From a virus: a DNA stretch of 64,000 nt. A program made the translations under genes and the position numbers. The DNA lies in IMG/VR virus record IMGVR_UViG_3300022927_001696, positions 27,581 through 91,580 of that record; one strand, given 5' to 3'. The stretch's first letter is position 1, and every line of letters starts with the position of its first letter. Below, in pieces: positions 24,167 through 52,869 of the stretch. Below the pieces are notes generated by a model. It was not told the origin of the DNA. It worked only from the letters and a program-made list of their open reading frames with translations, and made no database searches.

Positions 24167-25402
24167 ATGTTAAATTACAAAATTACAGAGTTCTATATAG
24201 AACACTTACAGGGAGTTTTGGACGACCTTGTGCGTAATAATTATAATGAAGGAATAATTGAATTTAAAAATAAAAAAGTATTAATTCTTTACTTGGAAGA
24301 TCCTTTATTAGATAAAGCATTACAAACTTTTAAATTAATAAAAAAACATGATAATCTAGACGGTATAATATTATTTAATCCTTCAGAAGTAATAGACTTT
24401 GAAATAATAAAAGTATTTTATTTTTATTGTATAGATAATAAAATTAATCACATTGCTATACATGATCCTAGATTGAATGATGGTAATCAGATAAATTTTC
24501 CTTTTGCTGGAAGAAATGTATCCATGCCCGTAATACCAACAACAGTCCTAGGACTAATAATCAATACTAATATAAATCCAGATGTTATAGAAAATTTAGA
24601 TCTATCTAATACAGACTGGGAGGGCATTAACAAAAAATTACAGGAAAATAAATTAAGACATGATAGATATTACTATTATACAAAAGATAACTTCAAATCC
24701 GGTAGCGAAAGAAATGTTTTATTCACTTGTTATAATAGGCAACCAAGAGTAAATAGAGTTTTATTAATAAATGAAATTTGCAAACAGGATTTGCATGAAA
24801 AAGGTGTTATAAGTTGTGGGTATCATGATGCAAAATTTAAATATTATAAAGATTTAGTAGAAGAAAAATATGTAGACTTATTCCCCATGCAATTAGAAGA
24901 TAGTACGATATACACAAATCAAAGTATAAATGATGAAATATGTAACCAGTCTATAACTAATGAACAATTAAATTCTTTTATAAATGTTGTTTCAGAAAGT
25001 TCAAGTGATTGTAATATCTTACCTTTAGATAAGGACAGTTGGACAGCACCTTTTTTTACTGAAAAAACTGCAAAAGCATTTATTTGTCATAATATTCCAT
25101 TATTCTATGCAACAAGATTTTATGTAAAGAAATTAAGAGATTTAAATTTTGATGTTTTTGATGATTTTATAGATCACAGTTATGATACTGAAATAAACCC
25201 AATTAGAAGAGTGGAAAAACTCACAAATGAATTAAAACGACTATGCTCTTTGCCTAAATCAGAACTCGTCGATATAGTAGACGGGTTAGAACACAGAATG
25301 AAAAGCAACATGTTAAATCTTATACATTATATGAATGATATAGATATAGACAAATCCAAAGAATTTTTAAAATTTTTTGAGGGCGTAGCAAAAAATAAAT
25401 AG
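24167..25402 (+). CDS. Putative glycosyltransferase-like protein (GT10/fucosyltransferase-like C-terminus); paralog of 41026..42228
   Basis: FINVVSES...FTEKTAKAF...PLF...LNFDVFDDFIDHSYD motif shared with 41026..42228. Confidence 0.45.
   Translation: MLNYKITEFYIEHLQGVLDDLVRNNYNEGIIEFKNKKVLILYLEDPLLDKALQTFKLIKKHDNLDGIILFNPSEVIDFEIIKVFYFYCIDNKINHIAIHDPRLNDGNQINFPFAGRNVSMPVIPTTVLGLIINTNINPDVIENLDLSNTDWEGINKKLQENKLRHDRYYYYTKDNFKSGSERNVLFTCYNRQPRVNRVLLINEICKQDLHEKGVISCGYHDAKFKYYKDLVEEKYVDLFPMQLEDSTIYTNQSINDEICNQSITNEQLNSFINVVSESSSDCNILPLDKDSWTAPFFTEKTAKAFICHNIPLFYATRFYVKKLRDLNFDVFDDFIDHSYDTEINPIRRVEKLTNELKRLCSLPKSELVDIVDGLEHRMKSNMLNLIHYMNDIDIDKSKEFLKFFEGVAKNK
25396..25401 (+). promoter_or_regulatory. 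Late promoter core TAAATA
   Basis: 5 nt before ATG 25407; overlaps the upstream stop. Confidence 0.55.
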
Positions 25403-25406
25403 TTAT

Positions 25407-26036
25407 ATGGAACTATATTGGAAATTTGATATCCCTGCACAAAAATTGTCTGTAAATATAGATGACAATTTATCTTATCAGGCTCTTAAAGGCTGTCGTG
25501 AAGGAGTGATAAAAACTTATAACAGTAAGGAATCATTTATTTCTTATGAAGATTGGCAAACAGAAAAAGAATGGCTTTCTAAAAATTATTCTCATATTGT
25601 AGGTGAACTAAAGGAGCCAAGTTTAGAGGAAATGAATTCATATAGAGAAAGAATTTCTCACATAACAGATGATCCAGGTGAGCCCTCTCACGGAATATCT
25701 TTAGACGGCTGGGCATATGATCGAATGCAACGAAAATCTTTATGGTTGCAGAATGCTGAATGTTCTTTAATGGTAGAAATAGGCAGAATAGAAAATGTAG
25801 GTATTTTTGAAACACCAGACGGAACAAATGTTTATAAAAGACCGTGGTGTGAATACGAAAATACATATTATAATACTATGCCCTGTTGTGTCTTTCCGGA
25901 CAATCCTGGATGGCAAAAATCCAGTATACAAGAATTAGAAAAATATGATTTAGATATTAATCATGACTGGGTTAAAAGTAATTTAAATAATGTACAAAAA
26001 GATTTATTGAATTCTTTATTTGTTTTACCAGCATAA
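25407..26036 (+). CDS. Hypothetical protein
   Basis: 209-aa ORF in operon orientation. Confidence 0.6.
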   Translation: MELYWKFDIPAQKLSVNIDDNLSYQALKGCREGVIKTYNSKESFISYEDWQTEKEWLSKNYSHIVGELKEPSLEEMNSYRERISHITDDPGEPSHGISLDGWAYDRMQRKSLWLQNAECSLMVEIGRIENVGIFETPDGTNVYKRPWCEYENTYYNTMPCCVFPDNPGWQKSSIQELEKYDLDINHDWVKSNLNNVQKDLLNSLFVLPA

Positions 26037-26045
26037 CTTTGTAGG

Positions 26046-26051
26046 TAAATA
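26046..26051 (+). promoter_or_regulatory. Late promoter core TAAATA
   Basis: 5 nt before ATG 26057. Confidence 0.6.
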
Positions 26052-26056
26052 TAGAT

Positions 26057-26416
26057 ATGAGTACACATTTGAATAAAGCTCTTGAGTTTGCAAATTATCG
26101 AGTCACATTAAATAATCAGCATTCGCAACTTAAAGCAAAAACACAAAGTTTGTTAAGTTATAGTATAAATGGCGGAACATTTACTATAGATATACCCCTT
26201 ATCACATTTTGTAAACAACTATTAGATGACAAATATACTGATGTCATACTTTTAGATATTTACAATAATCCCATAAAAATAGATGTTAAAACGTTTTATG
26301 ATGAAATTCATAGTAGATATTTTGAAGTAACAAACGATTACTATGCTGAATATGAAAAACTTCGCAAAGCAAGAAAAGTTCATAAGGTTTTAGGTCTAAA
26401 TGAAAAAGGAGAATAG
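26057..26416 (+). CDS. Hypothetical phage protein
   Basis: ALEFANYRVTL...NGGTF...LLDIYNNPI; overlaps the downstream GT gene. Confidence 0.6.
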   Translation: MSTHLNKALEFANYRVTLNNQHSQLKAKTQSLLSYSINGGTFTIDIPLITFCKQLLDDKYTDVILLDIYNNPIKIDVKTFYDEIHSRYFEVTNDYYAEYEKLRKARKVHKVLGLNEKGE

Positions 26417-27299
26417 TAAAGGATTTTTAATGTTTGCTCATAATAATGAGGAAATAGACTATATGCAATTGGCTGTAATAAACTCTTTACTAATACAAAA
26501 GCATCTTAAAATAAAAAACATCACAGTTGTTACTGATCCTCACAGTTTAAAACATGCCGAAAAAACATTAGGCAAAAAACTTATTAAAAAAGCAATTAAT
26601 AATTTAGTTGTTGTAGAAAAAGATAAAAAATTTAAAGCAAAAAATATTAGACTGTATAAAGATACAAGTCATACTGCTAAATCCTTACCTTTTTATAATG
26701 TAAATAGATGTGACGCATATGATATATCACCATATGACGAAACAATTCTTATTGATGTAGACTATCTTATATTAAGCGATGTTCTTAATCAATGTTGGGG
26801 ACACAATAATGAGGTTATGATGAATTGGAAATTTCAGGACATAATGTATGAAAGAAAAGATCCTACATTAAATAGACTATACGATATGGGTATAACCATG
26901 TATTGGGCCACAGTGGTTTATTTTAGAAAAACAGATTATGTTAAGGATTTATTTGAGTGTGTAAAACATGTTAGAAATAATCAGCAATATTATAGAGATA
27001 TTTATAAATGGCCCGGTAATCTATATAGAAATGACTTCAGTTTTAGTATTGCCGCTCATATGATGTCTGGCTTTGTGGATAAAGGTATACCACAACTACC
27101 AACTACATTATATAAAAGTTTTGATACTGATAATATTCACAAAGCAGTAGATGATGAGACTATAATTATGCTTTTAGAAAAGCCAAAGAGCCCGGGAGAT
27201 TTTATGTTGACCAGATGGAAAGGTCTGGATTTGCATATAATGAATAAATGGGCTATAAATAGAGCAAGTAAGGAATTGTTAAGTTATGTCAGTGACTAA
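26400..27299 (+). CDS. GT-A fold (GT8-like) glycosyltransferase
   Basis: SPYDETILIDVD (DxD motif); paralog of 28299..29162. Confidence 0.7.
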   Translation: MKKENSKGFLMFAHNNEEIDYMQLAVINSLLIQKHLKIKNITVVTDPHSLKHAEKTLGKKLIKKAINNLVVVEKDKKFKAKNIRLYKDTSHTAKSLPFYNVNRCDAYDISPYDETILIDVDYLILSDVLNQCWGHNNEVMMNWKFQDIMYERKDPTLNRLYDMGITMYWATVVYFRKTDYVKDLFECVKHVRNNQQYYRDIYKWPGNLYRNDFSFSIAAHMMSGFVDKGIPQLPTTLYKSFDTDNIHKAVDDETIIMLLEKPKSPGDFMLTRWKGLDLHIMNKWAINRASKELLSYVSD

Positions 27300-27471: not shown

Positions 27472-27643
27472 AAAAAGACAACCAGAAATAGGAGACAAAA
27501 TAGAACATTTTTGTCGTTTGAACGGAGCATTTCAAGGTGAAGTAATAGAAATACTTGGTATGCAGTTTGTTTATAAAACAGGCGATGGTCTCGAAAGGCA
27601 TTGTCTGTTTAGAGAACAATGGAAATTTATAAATGAAAAATAG
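27464..27643 (+). CDS. Small hypothetical protein (59 aa, not in ORF track)
   Basis: MGKKRQPEIGDKIEHFCRLNG...WKFINEK*; fills the gap and overlaps both neighbours. Confidence 0.65.
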   Translation: MGKKRQPEIGDKIEHFCRLNGAFQGEVIEILGMQFVYKTGDGLERHCLFREQWKFINEK

Positions 27644-28079
27644 ATATTATATATTAGCCGGTGTACTGTACACATTGTTTATAGGCTTTACTGCGAGTGC
27701 AATCCAGTACAGACTTTCAATGGAGGAAATTAAAGAACGGTATCAGACAGAATATTGTGAAGTTGTATATGAATACACAGGTGAAGTAGGCGGAGAAGAT
27801 TGGGAAGAATTGATGACTCTTGCTATAGAAATGCAGGAAGAACGTGACGAGTTACAAGAAATAGTTGACGAAGGTATAGACAAGTACTACGAAGAAGAAT
27901 TTGGCGAAAGCCGTAATCAAAGTGATGCTGATGCATACATAAGTTTATTTATGAATTTGACTGATCCTATTAATTGGGTATTCACATTGATAATTGCTAC
28001 ATTCATAGCAAGTTTTTATCTAGCATTTTATAGTTGTAAACTTGCTATAGAAAGACATTTTAGGAAAGAAGATGACTAA
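27633..28079 (+). CDS. Membrane protein (2 predicted TM segments)
   Basis: Hydrophobic N- and C-terminal stretches flanking an acidic helical loop. Confidence 0.6.
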   Translation: MKNRYYILAGVLYTLFIGFTASAIQYRLSMEEIKERYQTEYCEVVYEYTGEVGGEDWEELMTLAIEMQEERDELQEIVDEGIDKYYEEEFGESRNQSDADAYISLFMNLTDPINWVFTLIIATFIASFYLAFYSCKLAIERHFRKEDD

Positions 28080-28302
28080 GAAATATATACACGTTAATCA
28101 ACACAAGATTAGAAGTAATTTAAAACACGGCACTAACGAGCCTGTGATTACAATTAAAGAAGGACGTAATAACACATACTGCCACGAAGTAGAAGTCAAA
28201 GGTCCCAGCAAAGTAATTTACGGCGTAGACGGTGAAAAAATACTTGCCTGTGGTGCAAGAGTAGTAATAGAAACAGAGAGTGATATAGAAATAGTACGAT
28301 GA
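28072..28302 (+). CDS. Hypothetical phage protein
   Basis: IHVNQHKIRSN...PVITIK...CGARVVIET pattern, as seen in phage small proteins. Confidence 0.6.
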   Translation: MTKKYIHVNQHKIRSNLKHGTNEPVITIKEGRNNTYCHEVEVKGPSKVIYGVDGEKILACGARVVIETESDIEIVR

Positions 28303-29162
28303 GTAGAGGTTATATAGTAATCGCACAGAATAACGAAACGACTGATTATTTAGAGCAGGCGTATGCACTCGCACTCAATTTAAAACTAACACAGACGGTT
28401 GTAAGCAATCTAACAGTATGTGTAGACACTGATACTAAGAAACTTTTAACGGCAAAACACAAAAAAGTCTTTGATAATATCGTAGATATTCCTTGGCAAG
28501 ATGATGCCGCAGATGCAGATTGGAAAATTAATAATAAATGGAAGTATTACTATATGACTCCGTACGATGAAACTGTAATACTAGACACAGATATGATATT
28601 CCCCACAGATGTAAGTTATTGGTGGGATATTATGTCACAACAGGACGTTTGGGCAACTACAAAAGTAAGAACTTATAGAGGAGAGGTTGTAACAAGTAAT
28701 TTTTATAGAAAATATTTTGTAGCAAATAACCTACCTAATGTATATACAGCATTTTTTTACTTTAAAAAATCAGATCTAGCAAGTGAGTTATTTGCTATGA
28801 TAGAAATAATTTTTCAACACTGGCAACGTATGTTTTACAAATATATGCCTAAAGGAAAACCAGATTGGTTGAGCGGTGATGTTGCATTCGCTCTAGCGAT
28901 GCAAATATTAGGTATAGAGGCAGAATGTACAAGAGAAAATATAGACGAAGTACCAACATTTATACATATGAAAAGTCATGTGCAAAATATACCTGATACA
29001 AGAATAAGCGAATTATGGACTGAAACACTCCCTACTTATTATAACTCATATAAAAATTTTAAAATAGGTAACTTCCAGCAACAATATCCTTTTCATTATG
29101 TAGAAAAAAATTGGATGGATAAAAATAAAATTAAACAAATGGAAAAAGAATTACTAGCATAG
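28299..29162 (+). CDS. GT-A fold (GT8-like) glycosyltransferase
   Basis: TPYDETVILDTD (DxD motif); paralog of 26400..27299. Confidence 0.7.
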   Translation: MSRGYIVIAQNNETTDYLEQAYALALNLKLTQTVVSNLTVCVDTDTKKLLTAKHKKVFDNIVDIPWQDDAADADWKINNKWKYYYMTPYDETVILDTDMIFPTDVSYWWDIMSQQDVWATTKVRTYRGEVVTSNFYRKYFVANNLPNVYTAFFYFKKSDLASELFAMIEIIFQHWQRMFYKYMPKGKPDWLSGDVAFALAMQILGIEAECTRENIDEVPTFIHMKSHVQNIPDTRISELWTETLPTYYNSYKNFKIGNFQQQYPFHYVEKNWMDKNKIKQMEKELLA

Positions 29163-29170
29163 GAGAATTT

Positions 29171-29815
29171 ATGACAACATCATTAGCAGAAAAAAGACGT
29201 AAATTATTTTTGAAGGAAAAAGAAAAACATGAAGATGTAAATGCCCTTATAAGGAATAATATAGAAAAAGATGTAGATGTATATTTTAATGATAACGGAG
29301 ATATTTTACAAATAGGCCATGGTAAAAGAAGAAAAAACAAAAAAGAATTAAAAATTACAATGAAGAGAGAACAAGTAAATATCTTAGAGGGGAAAAATTG
29401 GAACCTATATAAAATAGAAAAAGACCCTATAGAAGATAATGTTTTTTCTATTCAACTAAGACCAACAGAAAATTTATTTGTTAAAAGTGAAGAAGAGTTT
29501 TTGCAAAAAATAGAAACTGGAAACAAAAGAGATTCAGAAATAATTATCACTATAAAAGAATACTATGTAAGAATTGAGATGTCTAAAAAGGCTAAAAATA
29601 TTTTTAAAGGCAAAGAAAACGTTTCCATAAAAGGTTCTAAAGTCTTAAAATTCTATTTTACAGCAGAAAATGATCCTCATTATATGATACATGGTATAAA
29701 TGTTTTCTTAAAAGATTTAATAAAAGAAGAAGCAGTAGAGGTTAAAACACCTTTGGATGTTACTCACTGTGATGTGTATACCTATAAATTATTTGATAAA
29801 TATGTGCGTACTTAA
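29171..29815 (+). CDS. Hypothetical protein
   Basis: AGGAG RBS at 29161; Lys/Glu-rich ORF. Confidence 0.6.
   Translation: MTTSLAEKRRKLFLKEKEKHEDVNALIRNNIEKDVDVYFNDNGDILQIGHGKRRKNKKELKITMKREQVNILEGKNWNLYKIEKDPIEDNVFSIQLRPTENLFVKSEEEFLQKIETGNKRDSEIIITIKEYYVRIEMSKKAKNIFKGKENVSIKGSKVLKFYFTAENDPHYMIHGINVFLKDLIKEEAVEVKTPLDVTHCDVYTYKLFDKYVRT
29794..29802 (+). promoter_or_regulatory. Late promoter (TGATAAATA)
   Basis: Upstream of AGGA and ATG 29837. Confidence 0.5.
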
Positions 29816-29836: not shown

Positions 29837-30835
29837 ATGGCAAAAATTGATGTTACAGAACTAGATATATTCTATATTTCTTACGATGAACCTAATGCAG
29901 AAGAGCATTGGGCTGATTTATTAAACAAAGTACCGTGGGCAAAACGTGTTCATGGAGTTACAGGCTTTGACGCCGCTCATAAGGCATGTGCAGAACAATC
30001 TGAAACAGACCGTTTTATCACAGTAGATGGTGATAATATAGTTATGCCTGATTTCTTTGAGCAGGTATTGGATGTACCTGATACTGACCATGACGGTAAT
30101 GACATCAGCCAAAGTATATTCAGTTGGAATGCTAAAAATATATTAAACGGTTTAGTATATGGTAATGGCGGACTTAAATGTTGGCCTAAGCAATATGCAT
30201 TAGATATGAAAACACACGAAGATGCAGATGATGATGAAGGCATGGAATTTTGCTGGAAACTTAACTACATACAACTAAACGATACATTCTCAGAAGTACA
30301 TCAGACTGCTTCTCCCTTCCAGGCATTTAGAGCAGGTTTTAGGGAAGGAGTAAAGATGAGCCTAGATCAAGGTTTAAGAGTTAGACCAGATGAATTTATA
30401 CAAAAAATTTGGTATGGCAACTATAATAGATTGCAAACTTGGTGTAACATTGGCAGTGATGTTGAGAACGGACTATGGGCAATATATGGTGCAAGACTAG
30501 GATGTGATATGACGGTATTAAGTGATTGGGACACTAATCTTATTTCAGACTACGATTGGTTTAAAGATTTTTTTAAGAATGACATAATTCCTCGTTTCCC
30601 TGGTGATACTATTTGTAACAATACCAAAGTCTCTTACAACTCAGAAATGTTATATATTGCTATACAAGATTTAGGAGTAAAACTAAATGAAAACATAAAT
30701 GAGATGATGCTATTTGATCCAAACGAACAAATGTGTAAATTTTTTAAAAAAACTTTTGTCAATCCTAGACGATGGGGTGTTATGATAAGAGAAAAACAAA
30801 TACAAGATTTATTAGAAAAAGGATTAATTAAATGA
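29837..30835 (+). CDS. GT-A-like glycosyltransferase
   Basis: DIFYISYDEPNA...AAHKACA...FITVDGD (DxD); homologous to the last domain of 48372..52214. Confidence 0.6.
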   Translation: MAKIDVTELDIFYISYDEPNAEEHWADLLNKVPWAKRVHGVTGFDAAHKACAEQSETDRFITVDGDNIVMPDFFEQVLDVPDTDHDGNDISQSIFSWNAKNILNGLVYGNGGLKCWPKQYALDMKTHEDADDDEGMEFCWKLNYIQLNDTFSEVHQTASPFQAFRAGFREGVKMSLDQGLRVRPDEFIQKIWYGNYNRLQTWCNIGSDVENGLWAIYGARLGCDMTVLSDWDTNLISDYDWFKDFFKNDIIPRFPGDTICNNTKVSYNSEMLYIAIQDLGVKLNENINEMMLFDPNEQMCKFFKKTFVNPRRWGVMIREKQIQDLLEKGLIK

Positions 30836-31485
30836 TTAAAAGATATGTATTAGGATTCGCTACAGCAATATTATTACTATTATTAAGTTTTAAAGTATCA
30901 GCACTTGATGTTGGTTTGGGTATAGAGGAAGATGACGGCGATATAGAAATTGATTTAAGTCTTGATTGGGCAAATGAAGTTGGCCCATGGCAATCAATTG
31001 TAGAATTCGATCATGTAACAGAAGAATCTCAAGGAGAAGAGAAAACAAATTTAACATATTTAAATTTAAAACAAAATTATCAGTATAGTGATAAAATATA
31101 TGTTATAGGAATAGTGCAGTTCGATACAGATAAATTTAGGGAAGACTACAAAACAAGATCAGTAATTGGTGGTGGTATAGGTTATAAAATTTATAAATCA
31201 GATAGAATAAAAATTAGTAACGAATTTTCTGTTGCATATTTAGAAAGTGATATTACAGAAGAAATATATAGAAATAGTTTATGGGCATCTTTTAAACTTG
31301 CAGAAAAGATAAATGCATCTAATAAGTTTTTATATGAGTCTGGCGATGAGCCCTATAAAAGAAATGAATTTGAAATAGATTATCAACTAACAGAAAATAT
31401 GTTTATTGGATTATCATGGAGGAAAATACAAGAAGGATTAAAAGACAGAGATACAAAATCTTTAACTTTCAAAATTAAATTTTAA
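30832..31485 (+). CDS. DUF481-like outer-membrane beta-barrel protein
   Basis: Signal peptide, alternating amphipathic strands, GGGIGYK motif, C-terminal LTFKIKF. Confidence 0.7.
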   Translation: MIKRYVLGFATAILLLLLSFKVSALDVGLGIEEDDGDIEIDLSLDWANEVGPWQSIVEFDHVTEESQGEEKTNLTYLNLKQNYQYSDKIYVIGIVQFDTDKFREDYKTRSVIGGGIGYKIYKSDRIKISNEFSVAYLESDITEEIYRNSLWASFKLAEKINASNKFLYESGDEPYKRNEFEIDYQLTENMFIGLSWRKIQEGLKDRDTKSLTFKIKF

Positions 31486-33017
31486 TGAGCATATATGATC
31501 AAGCCGCAGATAAGGCCAAAGAACAATTAGATGCCATAAGCGATACAATGTGTTACGCAAAATGGACACAGGTGTCTATGCATTTAACAAATGGCAAAAC
31601 ACATAGTTGCTATCATCCTCCTACACATGATATAGATGTAGAAGAACTAGAGAATAATCCTTCAGCATTACATAATACAGCAGAAAAGAAAGAACAACGT
31701 AGACAAATGTTAGCAGGTGAACGACCTGAAGGTTGTAGTTACTGTTGGCGTATAGAAGATGTAGGCGGTAGAAGTGATAGAGTTTATCGTAGTGGTGAAT
31801 ACTGGGCACAAAACGCCAGAGAAGAAATATCAGAAGCAGGTGCAGACGGAAATATAAATCCACGTTATGTAGAAGTAAACTTTAACCAAGCCTGTAATTT
31901 TAAATGCTCATATTGTTCTCCTCATTTAAGTAATAGTTGGGAAAAAGAGATTAAAGAATTTGGTGCATACAAGATAATAGATGGTGAGCATAACAATTTA
32001 GAAAGTTTAAGTAATCAGAGATTACTACCACAAAAATTAGCACAAGGGGAAAATCCATACGTTACAGCATTTTGGAAATGGTGGCCTGAATTATACAAAA
32101 CATTAGAAGTATTTCGTATGACTGGGGGCGAGCCATTAATGGATAGTAATACATTTAAGGTTCTAGACTATGTGTATGAAAATCCAAATGCCTGGTTGGA
32201 GATGTCATTAACATCGAACATGGTACCACCTAAACCTATCTTAATGGATATGTTTATAGAGAAACTACAAAGATTAGAAGAGATACAAATTTGGGAAGAT
32301 CCAGAAAAGTTTAATCCAAACTCTGGAAATAACTGGTATGTAGCACCAGCATGTAAGAACTTTGCCACGTTTGTAAGTGTAGATGGTTACGGTGTACAAG
32401 CAGAGTATATGCGTACAGGTATGGATTTTTCAGTGCTACAAAAAAATGTAAAACGTATATTATCAGAAACAGATAATAGTACTATAACATTTATTAATAC
32501 GTTCAATGTGTTAAGTCTTACAAGTTTACGTGACTATTTACAATGGATATTAGACTTGCGAGATGAGTATGCTAAAGACAGACAAGGTATAAAATATATA
32601 CCTATACCAGATAATGGTGATCATAAACATGATGATTATGAAATAAGACCCAAACAAAGAATATGGTTTGATATTCCTTTACTAAGAGCACCTTTATGGC
32701 AATGTATACAAATATTACCTGAGTACTATCAAAGTTATTTAGAAGAAGCAATAGCATTTATGGAAATGAATCAAGCAGATGAAGTAAATATAGACTATAG
32801 AGGATTTAAAGACTTTGAGATAGACAAAGTTAGACGTAATTTAGAATGGATGAAAGCAGGTTCTAAAATGGAAAAAGAAGAAGTTATCAAAGCAAGAGCA
32901 AATTTTTATAAATTTTTTACGCAACATGACGAAAGAAGAAGCACAGATTTTTTAAGCACATTTCCTGAAATGGAAGACTGGTGGCAAATTTGTAAAGAGG
33001 CAGAGGCAATGGTATGA
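31485..33017 (+). CDS. Radical SAM protein with N-terminal twitch domain (#1)
   Basis: CYAKW...SCYHPP...CSYCW, then CNFKCSYC and TGGEP. Confidence 0.9.
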   Translation: MSIYDQAADKAKEQLDAISDTMCYAKWTQVSMHLTNGKTHSCYHPPTHDIDVEELENNPSALHNTAEKKEQRRQMLAGERPEGCSYCWRIEDVGGRSDRVYRSGEYWAQNAREEISEAGADGNINPRYVEVNFNQACNFKCSYCSPHLSNSWEKEIKEFGAYKIIDGEHNNLESLSNQRLLPQKLAQGENPYVTAFWKWWPELYKTLEVFRMTGGEPLMDSNTFKVLDYVYENPNAWLEMSLTSNMVPPKPILMDMFIEKLQRLEEIQIWEDPEKFNPNSGNNWYVAPACKNFATFVSVDGYGVQAEYMRTGMDFSVLQKNVKRILSETDNSTITFINTFNVLSLTSLRDYLQWILDLRDEYAKDRQGIKYIPIPDNGDHKHDDYEIRPKQRIWFDIPLLRAPLWQCIQILPEYYQSYLEEAIAFMEMNQADEVNIDYRGFKDFEIDKVRRNLEWMKAGSKMEKEEVIKARANFYKFFTQHDERRSTDFLSTFPEMEDWWQICKEAEAMV

Positions 33018-33265
33018 ATACAAAAGTAATAATTGACGCACTTAAAGAAGGAGTTGTAACAGTTGTATTCGAAAAAATAGATACAGGCGAAATAAGAACA
33101 ATGCCTTGCACATTAAATAATAAAATATCAGGGACAAGTATGACAATAAAAGATTACAGTAGTCCTGATACTTTAGTAATGTATGGCTTAGATGTAAAAG
33201 CATGGAGAGATGTAAGGGTAGATACTATACAAGATTGGTATGAAGGATATCCAAAGGAGAAATAA
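33014..33265 (+). CDS. Small WYL-like/SH3-fold phage protein
   Basis: VVTVVFEKIDTGEIRTMPCTL...DVKAWRDVRVD, typical of T4-like phage small proteins. Confidence 0.6.
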   Translation: MNTKVIIDALKEGVVTVVFEKIDTGEIRTMPCTLNNKISGTSMTIKDYSSPDTLVMYGLDVKAWRDVRVDTIQDWYEGYPKEK

Positions 33266-37076: not shown

Positions 37077-37095
37077 ATTTCTTTATCAAAAAACC

Positions 37096-37104
37096 TGATA
37101 AATA
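37096..37104 (+). promoter_or_regulatory. Late promoter (TGATAAATA)
   Basis: Intergenic, upstream of AGGAG (37129-37133) and ATG 37140. Confidence 0.65.
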
Positions 37105-37139
37105 TAACTGTATTTAATACAACACAACAGGAGATAAAG

Positions 37140-38462: not shown

Positions 38463-38463
38463 G

Positions 38464-44640: not shown

Positions 44641-45263
44641 TGGATAAATTAATTTTAAAGTCTAAACTTAATAATAAACAACAACATATTTTGGGTAATA
44701 TTTTTGATTCTAATTTATACGAAGACTGGATTTATTATGATGAATCAGAAGCAAATAAAGATATTAAATCTACTGTTGAAGCAAGGGGAAGAAAATATCT
44801 AAACTTAAATGATATAGACAATAAGGAATTACAATCCGTATTAACAGAAATAAAAAAAGAATTATTTGAATCTAATGGATTTGATGAGTCAAAATTTAAA
44901 TTGATAGAGATTGATGAAGGAAAGGGTTTATACCCTACTATGCTTTCGTGTATATATAAAGTTGATGGACTACCTAATCATGGTGTACACACTCATAAAG
45001 ACTGGAGAGGTGCAAATGACGAAATGCAGGTAAGATTTAATTATCTTGTCAGGAAACCGGAAGAAGGGGGAGAACCTGTAATTAATAGAAGAGTAATTGA
45101 TTTACAGGAGAAAGAAGGTATGGTACTTTTTGCATCAGAATGGCTACATGCAGGTATGCCAGTAGAAGGTAGCAAAACAAGAATATTATTAAGTATTGGT
45201 TATCTTGTTGAAAACGAATATGCACAGGAATTAGAAAAGAGATTTAATTATGGAAGAATATAG
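44640..45263 (+). CDS. 2OG-Fe(II) oxygenase-like protein
   Basis: HKD (HxD), EEGGEP, distal H in WLHAGMPV, then R in KTRILLS. Confidence 0.7.
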   Translation: MDKLILKSKLNNKQQHILGNIFDSNLYEDWIYYDESEANKDIKSTVEARGRKYLNLNDIDNKELQSVLTEIKKELFESNGFDESKFKLIEIDEGKGLYPTMLSCIYKVDGLPNHGVHTHKDWRGANDEMQVRFNYLVRKPEEGGEPVINRRVIDLQEKEGMVLFASEWLHAGMPVEGSKTRILLSIGYLVENEYAQELEKRFNYGRI

Positions 45264-46557
45264 TAAAACATTTTGTCCTTATCCTTGGATATCGATAATG
45301 ACTCAACCTACTGGTACTGTTAGTTGGTGTTGTGTTGCGAGAGACAATTTTAAAAATGATGACAACACTATGTTCGACCTTAATAAGGGAGACAAAATAG
45401 AATCTGTCTGGAATAACAATCATATGCGTAAAATCCGTAAGCAAATGATAGAAGGCGATGTGGTAAAAGGTTGCGAACATTGTTATGATTTAGAAGATAT
45501 GGGTTTTCCTAGTTATAGAACAAACTATATCAGAGACTGGTTTGAATATAGCGGAAGAGGAGAGGAAATACATGAGATTATAGAACGCAGTATAAACAAC
45601 GACTATAAAGTAGAAGAATCTCCAATGTACTTGGATTTTAGGTTAGGCAATATGTGTAACCTGAAGTGTAGAATGTGTCAACCTCAAAATTCAAGTCAAA
45701 TACAAAAAGAATATAAAAAAATAGAAACTGCTGATCCAATGGCAGGAAAATTTATTAAGGACAATTTCACCTGGGGTCAATTTGTTGATCACTTAACGCC
45801 ATGGCAAGATGATCCGGAGTTTCTGCGTCAAGTAGAAGAATGGTTACCCAGTGTTAGTAAATTATATTTCACTGGAGGAGAGCCAACTATTATAGAACGT
45901 GTATATTGGATCATGGAAAAATGTGTTGAAATGGGTATAGCCCAAAATATTGAATTGGTATTTAATAGTAATATGACTAACGTTCAAGGAAGATTTTTAA
46001 ATTTAGTAGAGCAGTTTAAAAATGTTTTAATGTGTATAAGTGTTGATGCATACGGCAAAGAAAACGAATATATCCGTGGGGCGAGCCATTGGAAACAAGT
46101 AGATAAAAATATTAGAAAATATTGTGAAAGTGAAGTTGTAGGTAGAATTTTATTTTCACCAGTAATACAAGTTTATAATATTTTAACAATTACTAAATTA
46201 TTAGATTACTGTGAAGAATTAGAAGAAGAATACGGTAGAGAAATTTTTGTTACGTTTTTAATATGTGATTATCCAACAAGTTTAGATTTTAGAATCTGTC
46301 CGGAGCAAGTTAGAGAAGTTGCGGCAGGAAGATTAGAGCAATGGCTTAAACGCAGTAAAGTACTTGTAAACAGGCCTGAAAATGTACAAAGTATAGAAGC
46401 AACAATAAAGGCATTAAAAGAAAATCGTAAAGAGAATTGGAGACAAGAATTAAAGACTTTTCAAAAGTATACAAATTTATTAGACAAGCAAAGAGACGAA
46501 TGCATGGAAGATGCATTACCGGAATTATATAGATTAATGTATCAATCAAATAGGTAA
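45250..46557 (+). CDS. Radical SAM protein with N-terminal twitch domain (#8)
   Basis: FCPYPW...WCC...CEHC, then CNLKCRMC and TGGEP. Confidence 0.9.
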   Translation: MEEYSKTFCPYPWISIMTQPTGTVSWCCVARDNFKNDDNTMFDLNKGDKIESVWNNNHMRKIRKQMIEGDVVKGCEHCYDLEDMGFPSYRTNYIRDWFEYSGRGEEIHEIIERSINNDYKVEESPMYLDFRLGNMCNLKCRMCQPQNSSQIQKEYKKIETADPMAGKFIKDNFTWGQFVDHLTPWQDDPEFLRQVEEWLPSVSKLYFTGGEPTIIERVYWIMEKCVEMGIAQNIELVFNSNMTNVQGRFLNLVEQFKNVLMCISVDAYGKENEYIRGASHWKQVDKNIRKYCESEVVGRILFSPVIQVYNILTITKLLDYCEELEEEYGREIFVTFLICDYPTSLDFRICPEQVREVAAGRLEQWLKRSKVLVNRPENVQSIEATIKALKENRKENWRQELKTFQKYTNLLDKQRDECMEDALPELYRLMYQSNR

Positions 46558-46561
46558 TATT

Positions 46562-46684
46562 ATGGAAGAAAATAAAGATAAAAAAGAAATTAATGATGAA
46601 TTAGAATTGACTCCTGAAGAGGAAGAACAACTAAAAAAGAAATTAGAAGAATTAAGAAAAAGAGACCCTTTTATATATAGATGA
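46562..46684 (+). CDS. 40-aa acidic peptide ending RKRDPFIYR (not in ORF track)
   Basis: MEENKDKKEINDELELTPEEEEQLKKKLEELRKRDPFIYR*; ATGA overlap with the carbamoyltransferase. Confidence 0.7.
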   Translation: MEENKDKKEINDELELTPEEEEQLKKKLEELRKRDPFIYR

Positions 46685-48195
46685 GAATATTAGGTTTAAG
46701 TTTTGGATTTCATGATGCAGGAGTCTGTATGCTTGATAACGAAACCATAGAATTTGCAAGTCATAGTGAAAGATATAGTAAAATAAAAAACGATCCTTGG
46801 CTAAACCATGAAATAATTGCAGATGCTATTGCAGGCGGTAAACCTGATGTTATAGTCTTACATGAAAAAGCATGGGCCAAACGTGCAAGAAATATATATG
46901 CAGGTAATTGGTCGGCATTCAAGGAACCTACACAAACAGAATGGATTAAAAAGTTTTATCCAGAACTAAAAGATATACCTATTGTAGATTATTGGCATCA
47001 CGAAACACATGCGGCCGCAGGTGTACTAACAAGCAAGTTTGATAATGCAACGGTAATGGTTATAGATGCTATAGGAGAATTTGATACTGCAACTATTTGG
47101 GATTGGAATTGTGGTATACTAGAAAAGAAAGATAGTGTAAAGTTTCCTAACAGTATAGGATTATTTTATAGTGCCATAACAGCTCTAGTTGGATTGAAAC
47201 CAATGGAAGATGAATATATACTTATGGGCATGGCCGCATACGGTGAACCTAAGTATGCCAAATATTTAGAAAAAACTTTGTTTAAAAACAACACATTAAA
47301 AACAAGAAAAAATTTACAAAGAGGATTACCAAAGAATTTTTTAAATAGAGATCAATACACTACAGTAGATGAATTTGGGCATACAAAAATAGACTACGAT
47401 ATAGCCGCAAGTGCTCAAAAAGTAGTAGAAGATAAAGTTATGGCATACGCCAGAAAAGCAAAAAAGATTGCAAAACACAAAAATTTAGTTTTTATGGGTG
47501 GTGTATCATTAAATTGTGTAGCAAATAGTTTGTTACATAATCTTTTTGATAACATTTATATAATGCCTAACCCGGGTGACTGCGGAAGTAGTTTAGGGGC
47601 GGCGGCATTGTATCTGTATAACGAAACAGGCAAGTTAGTTAATTGGCATGATCCATATTTAGGATATAATATAGAGGGTAAATATCCTATTGAAAAATCA
47701 CTAGAAAGTTTAAGAGCGGGGGAAATATTTGGTATAGCGAATGGTAGAGCAGAATTTGGGCCTAGAGCATTAGGTAATAGGACATTGTGTTCCGATCCTA
47801 GAGGAAGTACAATTAAGGACAAAATGAATGTTATTAAAAAACGACAAAAGTTTAGACCATTTGCACCAATGATTTTAGAGGAGCATGTACACGAATATTT
47901 TGAAATGCCAGGAGGTATTTCACATGCACCTTACATGCAGTTTGTAGCAAAGTGCAAAAAGCCAGAAGAGTTTCCTGCCATTGTACATAAAGACGGAACA
48001 AGTCGAGTACAAACAGTTAGACGCAGTGAACACCCTGAATTACATAAATTATTAACTCTCTTTTACAAAGAAACTGGTTGCCCTATGCTTGTAAATACAA
48101 GTTTAAATATTAAGGGTCAACCTATAGTTAATGACGAAAAAGATGCAGAAACATTTGCAAAGCATTACGGAGTAAAAGTACATGTCAGAGATTAA
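46681..48195 (+). CDS. Carbamoyltransferase, NodU/CmcH family
   Basis: ILGLSFGFHDAG, ERYSKIKND, HHETHAA, DAIGE, GRAEFGPRALGNR, RPFAP, VHKDGTSRVQTV, NTSLN. Confidence 0.93.
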   Translation: MRILGLSFGFHDAGVCMLDNETIEFASHSERYSKIKNDPWLNHEIIADAIAGGKPDVIVLHEKAWAKRARNIYAGNWSAFKEPTQTEWIKKFYPELKDIPIVDYWHHETHAAAGVLTSKFDNATVMVIDAIGEFDTATIWDWNCGILEKKDSVKFPNSIGLFYSAITALVGLKPMEDEYILMGMAAYGEPKYAKYLEKTLFKNNTLKTRKNLQRGLPKNFLNRDQYTTVDEFGHTKIDYDIAASAQKVVEDKVMAYARKAKKIAKHKNLVFMGGVSLNCVANSLLHNLFDNIYIMPNPGDCGSSLGAAALYLYNETGKLVNWHDPYLGYNIEGKYPIEKSLESLRAGEIFGIANGRAEFGPRALGNRTLCSDPRGSTIKDKMNVIKKRQKFRPFAPMILEEHVHEYFEMPGGISHAPYMQFVAKCKKPEEFPAIVHKDGTSRVQTVRRSEHPELHKLLTLFYKETGCPMLVNTSLNIKGQPIVNDEKDAETFAKHYGVKVHVRD

Positions 48196-48379
48196 TTGGC
48201 ATAATATACAACGCAAACTAGAAGGCAGATGTCACATGTGCGGTGGTGAATTACCTGATCATAGAGGCGTATGTCCTGTGTACGGAGAAGAACTTAAGAA
48301 AAGATATGACTCCTTAAATGAATCTGTAAAAAAAATAAGTGATATAGCACAAGATATAATAAAGAAGCATAATGTTTGA
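48182..48379 (+). CDS. Small Zn-ribbon-like protein
   Basis: CHMCGGELPDHRGVCP; overlaps both neighbours. Confidence 0.55.
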   Translation: MSEINWHNIQRKLEGRCHMCGGELPDHRGVCPVYGEELKKRYDSLNESVKKISDIAQDIIKKHNV

Positions 48380-51300
48380 TATATTCTATATAGGCAAAAA
48401 CGAAACATTAGAGAAAGACTTTCCTTTCGCTAAACAAGTACCGAGCCATGAAGATATAAATCCTATTACAAAGATGTATTGGGTGGTGGAACCTAATATA
48501 GAAGTAATAGATTCAGAAGTTTTTAATTATAGACCTGAAAGTTTTGATATGGAATATAAACATATATGGAAATGGGACGATCAAAATTATGGTGGTATAT
48601 CATTAATACCAAAAAATAAAACAGAAGGTATAAAAGAAATTAATAAAGTAGTTTGTAAAAAATCTTTTACAAAATTAAATACTAAGACACCAGGAAAATA
48701 CTTTGAAAATAACCCCTACGCAACCCATGTTTGGTGTATTGATCCTGAATACAAATTGCCTGAGGATTTAAATTGGGCACCTAACAATTTTGAACCTAAC
48801 TTTATACATAGTTTTCATTTAAGAGGACAATTAGAGCATAAGTATCCTGCAGAAGAAGGAGGTATCAAACTTTATCCTAGAAACTGGAAAGAATGCGATA
48901 CAAAATATCATAATTTTTTAAATGCAAGTGCAACATATCCTGTATTTTATGTTAAAGATGTAGAAGATTATTCTCAACGTAAAATATTTACAGATGATTA
49001 TGTGTGGCTTATTGATTCACAATATAAGATAAACGCAGGTACTCTAGATTGGGTTCCAAATCCTTTTGAGGACACAATGATACATGTATTTAAAATGCCA
49101 TATCAATTACAAGAAAAATATCCTATGGCAATGGGCGGTATAAGACTCGTACCTAAAAAATGGCATGAAGCAGAAACAAAAATACATCCTGCTTGTCCTG
49201 TAGAAGATGAAAGTTATGACGTATTCTATGTAGATGAAGATGAGTTTACGGCTGAATCATATACAGAATGTGCCGAACGTAGTAAAACAGATTGGTTCTG
49301 GGTAGTAGACAGAGAGTTTCAATTTAACGGAAAACTATTATATGTACCTGCTATACACGAAAGAGATTATATACATGTATTTAAGGTCCCGGGACATTTA
49401 GAAGAAAGATATCCACCCGATTATACAGACGCATGGGATAATCGATGTGGCGGTATTAGACTTGTACATAAAGAGTTTGATTTCACTAAACACAAATATC
49501 AAAAAGATATTGTGCCTGTTAGGTATGATATTTTTTATACAGATAATATAAATGATTATGAATCAGCGGCTAGAAAGAGTAGAACAAAAATGTTTTGGTT
49601 AGTTGACAACGAGCACGAACTAAATGATGTTTTTAAATATGTTCCTGCTAAGTACGATCAAAAAACAATACAAGTATTTAAAATACCTAACCAGTTAGAA
49701 CATAAGTATCCAAAAAGTATTACTAATATAAGCGACAATAGATGTGGTGGTGTTAAGTTAGTACCTAAAGCATATAATACTGACAGCATTAAATATGTTG
49801 CTACTAATCCTACTAGCGATAGAAGTTACCCAGTTATTAAAGTTGATAACGTTGACGAGTATACAGAAGTATTTCAAGACTGTTGGATTGTTGACCGTGA
49901 GTACGAAATAAATCAAAAGATTGAATGGGCACCACCATTGTTTCAACAAAATTGCATTCATACATTTCATGTTGGAGATCAACTAAGACATAAGTATCCT
50001 GAAAGCATAGGTGGACTTAGATGGGTACCAGTAGATTGGAGTGGCGACATAGTCATACATGCAGAAATGCTAAATGCTATACCAGAGTATCCTATTTACT
50101 TTGTAGATGACCCCTCAATAAATCCTAAAAAAGATCACAGTTGTTGGGTAGCAGATAAATCATACCGCTTAGATGAAAGTATAAAATGGGCACCAAGTTC
50201 CTTTGACATAGACAAAGTTCATGTTTTTCATGTACACAATCAATTAACAAACAAATATCCAGAAGAAATGGGAGGCTTATATTGGTATCCTGATAGCAGT
50301 ACAGAAGAATTAAAAATACATAAAGAACCTTTAGTTATAAATGCCAAAACATTCCCGGTATATAGAGTAAGTAATCCAAGTGACTATAACGATATTACAG
50401 AAGATTGCTGGTTAGTGGACGAAGAGTATGTGTTAGATGATAATGATTTTAAATTTATTCCATGGCAGAACGAAAACGAAAAAGACCAAATACATGTTTA
50501 TCAAGTTAGCGGACAGTTAGAGCATAAGTATCCAGATGAGATGGGAGGTATATATTGGGTACCTGCTAATCATAAAGATAGCAAATTAAATATTCATAAC
50601 ACAACACCATTTGGAGAACAACTTACATTTCCTGTGTTTGAATCTGAAGAGCAAGGCCGTATAAAAACTTCAACTAGTTGGTTTTGGGTTATAGATCCAG
50701 ATGTAAATGTACTTGAAACTTTTGATTTTAGGTTTGTACCTAAAATTTGGGATAATGGAAAAACACATGTATGGCAAAAACTAAATCCAATTACGGGTAG
50801 GCAGTACGATTACGGTGGTGTAATGTTATGTCCTAAAGTAGCACAGACAAAGGGTAGACCGAAATATATTAGGGAACCTGCATGTACACAAAAAGAATAT
50901 CCAGTGTATAAGTTACAGGCAGATGACTATAAAGACGGCTTACAGAAGGTCTATGAGCGTCTAGCAGGGGATTGTGCAACAGATATGTATTGGATTGTAG
51001 ATGCTTACACCCAAATAGATCAAGATTTTAAATTTGATTATTATCCAACACAATGGGATAAAAAGAACGTTCATATATGGCAAAACGAGGATGGAGAATT
51101 TAGAAATATTAGATTAGTACCTAAAGAAACATTTTTAGATAGACAATATACTGATAAAGAGATTGCTAACAATAGTTTTGAACATCTAAAATTAATAAAT
51201 ACTATAGCAAGCCTTAAGCCTAAATGGCCAGTTATCCACTTGCAGAGTTTAGAACGCAAAGAGTTTATAAACGCGATAAAGGACATAGAAACCCCCTTTG

Positions 51301-52214
51301 TTTGGACTGTAGACCCAGATGTCAAAGTGGAACAAGACGTGCTTGACCGTGGATTCATGCCTTTGATTACTGACGTAAACAAAATTCATACATGGCAGAA
51401 AATAAATTCCAGAACAAAAAAAGTTCATGCATACGGCGGCTTAAGATTATGGCCCACTAATTTAGACCTTGATAATATAAAATCTGACGATCTTAAATTT
51501 AATAGATTTAAAAATTTACAATATGTAAAATCCCCAGGCTCTATTACTAATGAATATGATATTGTGTTTTTATCATATAAAGAAAAGGGTGCAGAAGAAC
51601 GATATAATAATTTAAAAGAAAAATACAATATTATATGGATTAAAGACATAGAGGGAATCTTTAATGCACATAAGAAAGCATCTGAAGAAGTAAATAGTAG
51701 TATGTTCTGGGTCGTAGATGCTGATGCAGATATAGTTGACGACTTTGATTTTTCCTATATACCTGATGTATATGATGAAGAAGTTGTACATGTATGGGGA
51801 AGTAAAAATCCAGTCAATAATTTAGAATATGGTTATGGAGGAGTAAAACTGTTTCCAACTAATATGGTTAGAGAAGCAGACACTTGGGGTATTGATTTTA
51901 CAACTGGTTTGAGTAGTAGGTTTAAATCTATGCCTCAAATCAGTTGTATTACAAACTTTAATGTTGACGAATTTAGTACATGGCGTAGTGCGTTCAGAGA
52001 ATGTGTAAAATTAACATTAAATAATGACGAAGAAAGTAATCAAAGATTAGAGGCTTGGTTAAAATGTGATACTGAAGCACAATTTGTAGAATATGCAAGA
52101 AAAGGTGCTGAAGAAGGCAATAAATATGCCAAAGAAAATATTAACAACATAGAAAATTTAAATAAAATAAACGACTTTAAATGGTTAAATGAGCAATATA
52201 ATAAATCTAAATAG
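48372..52214 (+). CDS. 1280-aa protein of about 12 tandem GT-A-like repeats; the last is the most complete (DAD)
   Basis: Repeating W-x-x-D...P...H-x-F/W...(QLxHKYP)...GG-I/V/L-x-L/W-x-P unit. The C-terminal domain is homologous to 29837..30835. Confidence 0.65.
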   Translation: MFDIFYIGKNETLEKDFPFAKQVPSHEDINPITKMYWVVEPNIEVIDSEVFNYRPESFDMEYKHIWKWDDQNYGGISLIPKNKTEGIKEINKVVCKKSFTKLNTKTPGKYFENNPYATHVWCIDPEYKLPEDLNWAPNNFEPNFIHSFHLRGQLEHKYPAEEGGIKLYPRNWKECDTKYHNFLNASATYPVFYVKDVEDYSQRKIFTDDYVWLIDSQYKINAGTLDWVPNPFEDTMIHVFKMPYQLQEKYPMAMGGIRLVPKKWHEAETKIHPACPVEDESYDVFYVDEDEFTAESYTECAERSKTDWFWVVDREFQFNGKLLYVPAIHERDYIHVFKVPGHLEERYPPDYTDAWDNRCGGIRLVHKEFDFTKHKYQKDIVPVRYDIFYTDNINDYESAARKSRTKMFWLVDNEHELNDVFKYVPAKYDQKTIQVFKIPNQLEHKYPKSITNISDNRCGGVKLVPKAYNTDSIKYVATNPTSDRSYPVIKVDNVDEYTEVFQDCWIVDREYEINQKIEWAPPLFQQNCIHTFHVGDQLRHKYPESIGGLRWVPVDWSGDIVIHAEMLNAIPEYPIYFVDDPSINPKKDHSCWVADKSYRLDESIKWAPSSFDIDKVHVFHVHNQLTNKYPEEMGGLYWYPDSSTEELKIHKEPLVINAKTFPVYRVSNPSDYNDITEDCWLVDEEYVLDDNDFKFIPWQNENEKDQIHVYQVSGQLEHKYPDEMGGIYWVPANHKDSKLNIHNTTPFGEQLTFPVFESEEQGRIKTSTSWFWVIDPDVNVLETFDFRFVPKIWDNGKTHVWQKLNPITGRQYDYGGVMLCPKVAQTKGRPKYIREPACTQKEYPVYKLQADDYKDGLQKVYERLAGDCATDMYWIVDAYTQIDQDFKFDYYPTQWDKKNVHIWQNEDGEFRNIRLVPKETFLDRQYTDKEIANNSFEHLKLINTIASLKPKWPVIHLQSLERKEFINAIKDIETPFVWTVDPDVKVEQDVLDRGFMPLITDVNKIHTWQKINSRTKKVHAYGGLRLWPTNLDLDNIKSDDLKFNRFKNLQYVKSPGSITNEYDIVFLSYKEKGAEERYNNLKEKYNIIWIKDIEGIFNAHKKASEEVNSSMFWVVDADADIVDDFDFSYIPDVYDEEVVHVWGSKNPVNNLEYGYGGVKLFPTNMVREADTWGIDFTTGLSSRFKSMPQISCITNFNVDEFSTWRSAFRECVKLTLNNDEESNQRLEAWLKCDTEAQFVEYARKGAEEGNKYAKENINNIENLNKINDFKWLNEQYNKSK

Positions 52215-52869
52215 TTGGAAGGAAGTTACAGAATATATTGATAAAGGATTCTGGAAACCTACACCTAGTTATTTTGAACATATAGTCCAGCATGGAAACT
52301 ATTATCCTGCACACGCATTTAGCAAAGGACAGTTAGCAAGTAAAAGTTGGTTATTAAACGAACTTTATCACACATATCCTAAAATTCCTAATGTTAATGT
52401 AGCAATATTAGGTAGTTGGATAGGTGCATTAGTTGAACCATTACATCAAAATTTCAATATAGAAAGAATATATGGAATAGATACAGATGCAGAAGCAATA
52501 GAAAAATCAGAAAAATTAAATCAACCTTTTGTACAAGACAGTTGGAAATATAAAGGGATAGTAGCAGATGTAGACATGTTAGATTGCAGTAATATGGAGT
52601 TTGAAACGAGTGGAGAACTAATTAATGTAAAACCTGATTGGATAATAAACACTAGTTGTGAGCATATGAGTACAGGTTGGTTCGATACTGTGGATTCAGA
52701 TCAATTAATTATAATGCAAACTAACGATTCTCCAGATTTCGAGGGTCACATAAACCCTGTGGCAAGTTTAAAAGACATGGAACTACTCTATCCACTTAGT
52801 AATTCAATGTTTTCTGGCCAATTAAAGACACCTGCATACACTCGTTTTATGCAAATAGGATACAAATAA
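52189..52869 (+). CDS. Class I SAM-dependent methyltransferase-like protein
   Basis: ILGSWIG, YGIDTD and IINTSCEH motifs. Confidence 0.7.
   Translation: MSNIINLNSWKEVTEYIDKGFWKPTPSYFEHIVQHGNYYPAHAFSKGQLASKSWLLNELYHTYPKIPNVNVAILGSWIGALVEPLHQNFNIERIYGIDTDAEAIEKSEKLNQPFVQDSWKYKGIVADVDMLDCSNMEFETSGELINVKPDWIINTSCEHMSTGWFDTVDSDQLIIMQTNDSPDFEGHINPVASLKDMELLYPLSNSMFSGQLKTPAYTRFMQIGYK

Follow-up and report, generated by a model that had tools for sequence, protein, structure and literature searches.

A 64,000-nucleotide stretch of viral DNA (hereafter the window; positions 27581–91580 of the 91.6-kb IMG/VR virus contig IMGVR_UViG_3300022927_001696, whose completeness is 26% by CheckV) carries at 24167–52869 an island of 25 open reading frames (ORFs), in which eight paralogous radical S-adenosylmethionine (SAM) enzymes stand among glycosyltransferase (GT)-like proteins and other enzymes of sugar-handling families. 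We read this island, tentatively and at somewhat below even probability, as a soluble cytoplasmic module of a giant T4-like phage that builds and edits a glycan, the likeliest acceptor of which would be a virion protein. Folds and families, synteny, old paralogy, and promoter footprints were observed directly, and from these we infer substrate, chemistry, timing, and target. ORFs are named below by their first coordinate in the window (Table 1).

Layout and conservation of the island

All of the 25 ORFs lie on the + strand, and at about 15 of their 24 junctions neighbouring ORFs overlap or abut. The island is bounded at its 5' edge by a hairpin with a T-run (24128–24147) and at its 3' edge by a convergent − strand gene starting from 52870, the position of which is kept in relatives (36–47% identity), and a fibre-like ORF lies upstream. 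The single co-oriented block behind the tail genes, with many overlapping start and stop codons, was thus correctly recognized in the initial annotation. Synteny across related phages, which had been named there as a check, was examined in 15 IMG/VR loci and three long contigs, and the gene order was found to be common to them from the fibre-like genes through the last ORF. The core genes comprise 26057, 26400, 28299, 29171, 29837, the eight radical SAM genes, those of the NeuB-like protein, dehydrogenase, carbamoyltransferase, and repeat protein, and 52189. The accessory genes are 24167, 25407, 27633, the DUF481 barrel gene, the WYL_2 gene, 41026, and the 2-oxoglutarate (2OG) oxygenase-like gene. 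No hydrophobic segment was detected in any core protein. An orthologue of 24167 was absent in the relatives G001, G002, and G005, where the 31–33% matches correspond to the 41026-like gene. The DUF481 barrel and the 2OG oxygenase had both been counted as pathway parts; their genes are missing from all relatives examined. Genes for a CMP-sugar synthetase, a sugar nucleotidyltransferase, or a thymidylate-synthase-family protein were not found in G000–G003 and G005, genomes that are partial, so that genuine absence does not follow.

The phage origin of the contig is supported by its sequence relationships. ORF 21057–23042 matched tail-fibre and virion families of PHROG, and the giant ORF upstream of the island is homologous in collinear patches to ORF361 of the cultured Ralstonia phage RsoM2USA, which was identified as a virion protein of >288 kDa by mass spectrometry (MS) (PMC8504454). 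A related contig reaches 250 kb at an estimated completeness of 66%, which points to a giant-phage lineage. The G+C content of the window is approximately 32%, and Rfam and tRNA scans of it gave no hits. Near-identical DNA to the contig is present in salt-marsh and seawater metagenomes; 10 kb of the island, searched by megablast in 50,697 phage records, gave zero matches.

Table 1. Features of the island and its flanks, in window coordinates (aa, amino acids).
Feature	Coordinates	Strand	Remarks
Giant ORF, 6025 aa	2296–20373	+	Upstream of island; S+T 17%, N 8.6%
GATAAATA box	23043–23050	+	30 nucleotides before fibre-like gene 23073; ATAAATA core kept in G001, G002, and G005
Hairpin with T-run, transcript boundary before island	24128–24147	.	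Relatives: different hairpin at same position, directly before 26057 orthologue
'TEK' family protein, GT-like by motif only, accessory	24167–25402	+	Paralogue of 41026, E 2e-21
209-aa protein, accessory	25407–26036	+	No homologue in relatives, no family match
Conserved protein opening core island, 119 aa	26057–26416	+	72–79% identity in relatives
Glycogenin-like (GT8-like) protein A	26400–27299	+	Paralogue of 28299; D-x-D invariant
Small protein, two hydrophobic segments, accessory	27633–28079	+	No homologue in relatives
Glycogenin-like (GT8-like) protein B	28299–29162	+	79–86% identity in relatives
214-aa protein	29171–29815	+	Fast evolving, position kept; 37–40% identity in relatives
GT-A fold glycosyltransferase-like protein, helical C-terminal domain	29837–30835	+	AlphaFold2 model, pLDDT 93, from 69 sequences
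DUF481 outer-membrane-barrel-like protein, accessory	30832–31485	+	Pfam 49.9 bits; N-terminal hydrophobic segment
N-twitch radical SAM 1	31485–33017	+	NF033640 323 bits; own orthogroup
WYL_2 small protein, accessory	33014–33265	+	Pfam 32.4 bits; in some relatives only
N-twitch radical SAM 2	33265–34929	+	NF033640 307 bits
Short NeuB-family TIM-barrel protein, 254 aa	34922–35686	+	Pfam NeuB 54.1 bits; 46–60% identity in relatives
N-twitch radical SAM 3	35664–37076	+	NF033640 294 bits; own orthogroup
GATAAATAT box	37097–37105	+	Before dehydrogenase gene; kept in 14/14 related loci despite diverged flanks, variable spacing
Nucleotide-sugar dehydrogenase-like protein	37140–38462	+	Pfam UDPG_MGDP_dh N and central domains; 79–97% identity in relatives
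N-twitch radical SAM 4	38464–39798	+	NF033640 300 bits
N-twitch radical SAM 5	39798–41036	+	NF033640 352 bits
'TEK' family protein, accessory	41026–42228	+	In some relatives only
N-twitch radical SAM 6	42200–43450	+	NF033640 389 bits; structure modelled
N-twitch radical SAM 7	43447–44640	+	NF033640 363 bits
2OG-Fe(II) oxygenase-like protein, accessory, weak call	44640–45263	+	Pfam 23.1 bits, below 27
N-twitch radical SAM 8	45250–46557	+	NF033640 350 bits
NodU/CmcH-family carbamoyltransferase	46681–48195	+	Pfam Carbam_trans_N 131.8 bits, Carbam_trans_C 177.9 bits
Repeat protein, 1280 aa	48372–52214	+	~12 partial GT-A-core repeats; 42–78% identity in relatives
Conserved 226-aa protein, weakly class-I methyltransferase-like	52189–52869	+	Pfam and PDB matches weak
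FG-GAP/VCBS-repeat protein, 827 aa	52870–55353	−	N-terminal hydrophobic segment; convergent with island end

Radical SAM enzymes and their companions

The eight radical SAM ORFs all exceeded the 170-bit cut-off of NCBIfam NF033640 (N_Twi_rSAM, twitch domain-containing radical SAM protein) with scores of 293–389 bits, which confirms the eight twitch paralogues that had been named from the sequence. In each of them an N-terminal Cys-rich domain precedes the core containing the CX3CX2C motif. The cysteines of this motif (C131, C135, and C138) and four in the N-terminal domain (C16, C35, C76, and C79) are invariant across the 8 paralogues and 23 sequences, and the Pfam SPASM domain was matched at the N-terminus in five of the eight. 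A quick maximum-likelihood tree resolved eight orthogroups with support of 99–100, each containing one copy from each of four genomes and set on a long stem, among which 31485 and 33265 formed a separate subclade. Such single-copy orthogroups on long stems indicate that the paralogues are old and were individually retained, and they point to distinct, retained functions of the eight enzymes. The protein collection contains 3850 relatives of the best radical SAM, many of them from Tara samples. A single-sequence PDB search with 42200 gave no match, and the AlphaFold2 model of this ORF was obtained with a predicted local distance difference test (pLDDT) score of 89.7. A fold search with this model gave a tie at Z ~12 among BlsE, DesII, anSME, CteB, SuiB, SkfB, MoaA, and viperin. 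The core fold is therefore regarded as generic, since sugar- and peptide-acting enzymes tie, and the substrate class is not readable from it.

About six GT-like proteins had been proposed for the island; this count was fair, but the fold was demonstrated for 29837 only, four of the others being borderline or unverified. The 29837 protein scored 12.7 bits against Pfam GT2, below the cut-off of 23.3, with no significant Pfam match, and single-sequence PDB searches with 28299 and 29837 gave no match. In the model of 29837, residues 3–156 matched GT-A enzymes at Z 8.5–10.3 with root-mean-square deviations of 3.0–3.6 Å, and the structural matches included PBCV-1 A64R, SunS/ThuS, and WrtF (Foldseek was also run) together with a Che8 transferase model; nucleotidyltransferases of the GT-A fold class were matched as well. 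In its D-x-D motif, the second aspartate (D66) is invariant and the first (D64) is kept in at least 90% of the 69 sequences. This family comprises 1226 clusters at 50% identity, some members of which are fused to GT1/GT28 domains. The repeats of the 48372 protein correspond to the central part of the 29837 domain, in pieces of ~95 residues that are shorter than a whole GT-A domain. The D-x-D motif is kept only in its last units and is lacking from most, and the last unit shares 26% identity with 29837. A protein built of such partial GT-A repeats is an unusual architecture. The profile of 26400, 28299, and their orthologues matched glycogenin-1/2 only, at a borderline E of 1.2e-3 over residues 4–121. 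Neither of the two had a Pfam match, and the nearest Pfam-bearing Atlas clusters of 28299 carry Nucleotid_trans or Glyco_transf_8, which is taken as a lead only. The 'TEK' family (24167 and 41026) is virus-only and had no match in Pfam or, as a profile, in PDB. Its nearest named Atlas clusters carry GT10 at 0.78–0.79, likewise a lead only, towards fucosyltransferases.

For the other enzymes, most of the families named in the initial annotation held at the level of Pfam domains. The UDP-sugar dehydrogenase (37140) passed with its N-terminal and central domains and had no C-terminal domain match in Pfam, and it scored 143 bits against TIGR03026, below the cut-off of 189.8 bits. Both domains of the carbamoyltransferase (46681) were above the Pfam cut-off, and its score against the NodU equivalog was 134.9 bits, the cut-off being 1000. 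The DUF481 barrel passed as well, as did the barrel of the NeuB-like protein (34922). The latter was also considered as a full NeuB/nonulosonic acid synthase and rejected, for it has 254 residues, contains no SAF domain, and scored 43 and 34 against the NeuB and PseI equivalogs, far below their cut-offs of 400 and 340. In the putative 2OG oxygenase an HxD...H pattern is visible in the sequence, but the Pfam score did not reach the cut-off. The methyltransferase call rests on matches that are consistent but weak (E 0.001–0.6), namely of some 52189 orthologues to Methyltransf_12/25/11 at E 0.001–0.01 and to PDB methyltransferases at E 0.05–0.6. The 29171 protein had no family match.

Relatives in other phages and promoter-like boxes

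When 42200 was used as a query, an N-twitch radical SAM was detectable in only three of the 50,697 phage records. In Vibrio phage K566, four such enzymes are interleaved with two GT8 genes, both positive in Pfam, and a GT4-like gene; both K566 and RsoM2USA place N-twitch radical SAMs beside glycosyltransferases. The GT8-like profile of 26400/28299 and the K566 GT8 genes were not aligned by hhalign (probability 0.5%). Sugars are considered the most likely substrate of the N-twitch radical SAMs, since these enzymes repeatedly accompany transferases in separate phage lineages.

RsoM2USA (MG752970.1) is the only one of these records with the 29837 family and also the only one with a 33265-type enzyme. 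Its ORF347–354 form a mini-island that shares eight island genes in the same order at 31–52% identity. Homologues of the fibre-like genes come first, then those of 26057, 26400, 28299, and 29837, a radical SAM gene, a counterpart of the C-terminal GT-A unit, and a homologue of 52189. The tail sheath gene lies upstream of this mini-island, and ORF361 and ORF356, two virion proteins confirmed by MS, are encoded immediately before it. RsoM2USA_354 and RsoM2USA_347 hold the same positions as 26057 and 52189 (35% and 31% identity), and RsoM2USA_353, 352, 349, and 348 correspond to 26400 (35%), 28299 (40%), radical SAM 31485 (35%), and the C-terminal unit of 48372 (37%), respectively. A second locus, ORF199–203, was found ~90 kb away, in which RsoM2USA_202, 52% identical to 33265, lies among three DUF6071 genes (ORF200, 201, and 203; L023 11126–15134) and adjoins the carbamoyltransferase RsoM2USA_199 (44% identical to 46681). 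One marine relative has a DUF6071 gene (G002:C1:42854-43213) directly before its carbamoyltransferase, and the two genes look like a recurring partnership. Unlike the island, RsoM2USA has no more than two radical SAMs, and neither locus was seen to contain a NeuB-like or dehydrogenase gene. The same-order mini-island in this cultured phage and its second radical SAM/carbamoyltransferase locus are new here; all of their ORFs are annotated as hypothetical and are not discussed in PMC8504454. RsoM2USA also has a second, divergent thymidylate-synthase-family gene (MG752970.1 7739–8398, − strand), which scored 85 bits against 242 bits for the normal one and could be a pyrimidine hydroxymethylase.

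Boxes of the GATAAATA(T) or TAAATAT type were found 11–45 nucleotides before 23073, 24167, 25407, 26057, 29837, and 37140. They include a CTAAATAT box at 24155 before 24167, and a TAAATAT box at 26046 and a GATAAATAT box at 29796, both kept in three relatives. The boxes at 23043, 26046, 29796, and ~37098 are kept in relatives while their flanks differ, and the same class precedes a fibre-like 894-residue ORF elsewhere on the contig. For the putative TAAATA promoters that had been listed for the island, the analysis gave these conserved GATAAATA-type boxes and a modest enrichment of TAAATA in spacers (odds ratio 3.7, p 0.027). The exact T4 octamer TATAAATA was rejected as a late promoter because it is depleted (4 sites vs 18 expected). 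The conserved boxes would fit late transcription together with the virion genes. The opposite arm, where genes for an ATPase and an exonuclease and the QueE-like gene lie, differs in promoter class: two sigma-70 promoters with a perfect 12-of-12 consensus (56045–56018 and 55649–55622, − strand) were found on that arm only.

Behind at least the promoter at 55649–55622, a leader precedes the ATG and ends in AAGGAGTAATTT; the gene at 56145–57251 carries one that is nearly identical. One GATAAATAT box was located on this early arm (~58070–58077), 31 nucleotides before the 98-residue ORF 57750–58046 (− strand), so that this box class is not confined to the structural arm. The QueE-like radical SAM gene lies at 62519–63403 (− strand; phrog_2076, E 1.3e-52) and could signal a 7-deazaguanine pathway in this phage, whose DNA is possibly modified.

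Target of the predicted glycan and comparison with known systems

Under our favoured reading, the island and the fibre-like genes would share GATAAATA-type boxes for their transcription, and host nucleotide sugars would be the feedstock, from which the phage dehydrogenase would produce a uronic-acid donor. The glycogenin-like pair and the GT-A proteins would place sugars on the acceptor, and the carbamoyltransferase and the methyltransferase-like protein would decorate the resulting glycan. Each N-twitch radical SAM may abstract hydrogen from a sugar position or residue of its own, with the auxiliary cluster accepting the electron, to give oxidised, epimerised, dehydrated, or carbon-linked sugars. 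Assembly and decoration in the cytoplasm are suggested by the mix of GT-A, glycogenin-like, dehydrogenase, carbamoyltransferase, and methyltransferase-like proteins together with the absence of hydrophobic segments from the core. A virion protein is favoured as the acceptor because the island follows virion genes and has its box type in common with fibre-like genes, and because of the arrangement in RsoM2USA. It would most likely be the giant 6025-residue protein, a candidate acceptor, or the fibres encoded just upstream. The more specific proposal, that up to eight different radical SAMs edit a glycan displayed on the virion fibres or the giant virion protein, is possible but on balance improbable. 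What stood of the glycan-tailoring pathway in the initial annotation is a conserved phage module enriched in sugar-handling folds, beside virion genes and with a conserved box; the action of the radical SAMs on sugars did not gain the same footing.

Several points weigh against this reading. The 42200 model ties the sugar-acting BlsE and DesII with the peptide-acting anSME, CteB, and SkfB, all at Z ~12, and a literature search for NF033640 found no paper, assayed member, or solved structure. Four of the six GT-like calls are borderline or unverified. In four metatranscriptome runs, short contigs of 99–100% identity were scattered over 33000–52999; these RNA-library contigs show neither transcription nor timing, as they may derive from carried-over DNA. 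Soluble transferases also act on lipid-linked O-antigen intermediates, and the solubility of the core therefore does not exclude a host-surface target. Comparable cassettes were in fact read as host O-chain modification in PMC7029224.

The last point leads to remodelling of the host envelope, by which the O-antigen, capsule, or another surface glycan would be altered during infection to block superinfection or re-adsorption of progeny, and which we regard as unlikely. It was proposed for GT8-rich fibre-region cassettes of SAR11 myophages, where radical SAM cassettes were also noted (PMC7029224). The window itself encodes the DUF481 outer-membrane-type barrel with its N-terminal hydrophobic segment, but that gene is missing from all relatives and the core island is without a membrane protein. 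UDP-sugar dehydrogenases and NeuB-type enzymes are generally typical of surface-polysaccharide loci; the late-type boxes are, however, common to fibre-like genes, and a late surface change would protect a lytic phage little.

It is less probable again that the radical SAMs modify a protein or peptide, introducing cross-links, epimerised residues, or oxidised side chains into virion proteins or a small peptide, with the transferases sharing that target or working apart from it. Most SPASM and twitch enzymes mature peptides (PMC11002830), the 42200 model ties with anSME, CteB, SuiB, and SkfB, and a conserved 119-residue protein opens the island. Against this, the block conserves no short peptide gene that is repeated or leader-like, and radical SAMs accompany glycosyltransferases even where phage lineages have no further detected island gene in common.

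Hypermodification of DNA, in which sugars, carbamoyl, or other groups would be attached to modified genome bases for restriction evasion, is given a low probability. Glycan assembly on DNA by phage transferases has precedent (Pyle 2024, as cited in PMC12619734), and the divergent thymidylate-synthase-family gene of RsoM2USA (85 bits) and the QueE-like gene on this contig would be in line with it. The island is, however, located in the structural arm behind late-type boxes, whereas DNA-modifying genes normally act with replication, and the closest folds are protein- or glycan-directed GT-A enzymes rather than T4 DNA glucosyltransferase folds. A diffusible, sugar-derived small molecule (aminoglycoside-like or nucleoside-like) made late in infection is very unlikely, for although the closest characterised sugar radical SAMs, BlsE and DesII, and in general the carbamoyltransferase family of TobZ, NodU, and CmcH work in such pathways, the block has no aminotransferase, cyclase, exporter, or resistance gene, and the 12-repeat GT-A protein and the glycogenin-like pair fit a polymer or protein acceptor better.

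Among characterised enzymes, BtrN, DesII, and BlsE share the radical SAM core with the island enzymes, and BtrN and BlsE also share one auxiliary cluster. BlsE and DesII belong to the tied top structural group of the 42200 model (Z 12.3), which peptide-acting enzymes match equally. BtrN and BlsE carry the auxiliary domain at the C-terminus, the island enzymes at the N-terminus, and sequence identity is 12–19%. As for the island as a whole, it had been put forward as the best candidate for an undescribed system. Its type is not undescribed: papers of 2017 and 2020 noted cassettes of multiple radical SAMs and GTs in the fibre regions of T4-like phages from the sea (PMC5332604, PMC7029224), including a genome with 12 radical SAMs (PMC5332604). 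Those described in PMC7029224 share with the island the habitat type, the position by a giant structural gene and fibres, and a gene mix in which GT8-like genes and UDP-sugar dehydrogenase accompany radical SAM cassettes. The two papers listed the genes only and favoured host O-chain modification, and the genomes here are larger, as judged from the 250-kb relative. The radical SAM family is hence a catalogued one and the cassette type was noted before, the prior papers giving no characterisation. No literature on the combination of jumbo phage, radical SAM, and glycosyltransferase was found.

Soluble, virus-encoded transferases near structural genes are likewise a feature of the capsid and tail glycans of mycobacteriophages (Freeman 2023, as cited in PMC12619734) and of the chlorovirus and mimivirus glycans (PMC9614988). 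Structural matches of the 29837 model include PBCV-1 A64R and the Che8 transferase model from these systems. To our knowledge, none of the virus-encoded virion-glycosylation systems compared here uses radical SAM enzymes.

If a glycan on the virion is indeed edited by up to eight radical SAMs, it would constitute a new class of viral glyco-modification and provide the first function for the N-twitch radical SAM family, whose sugar chemistry could be new. Such islands are common in ocean and salt-marsh phages and here occupy ~29 kb of the genome. Since a compact version is present in the cultured phage RsoM2USA, the question becomes an ordinary bench project. Should the product be a virion glycan, it would be expected to influence how abundant marine phages adsorb, which hosts they infect, and how stable their particles are.

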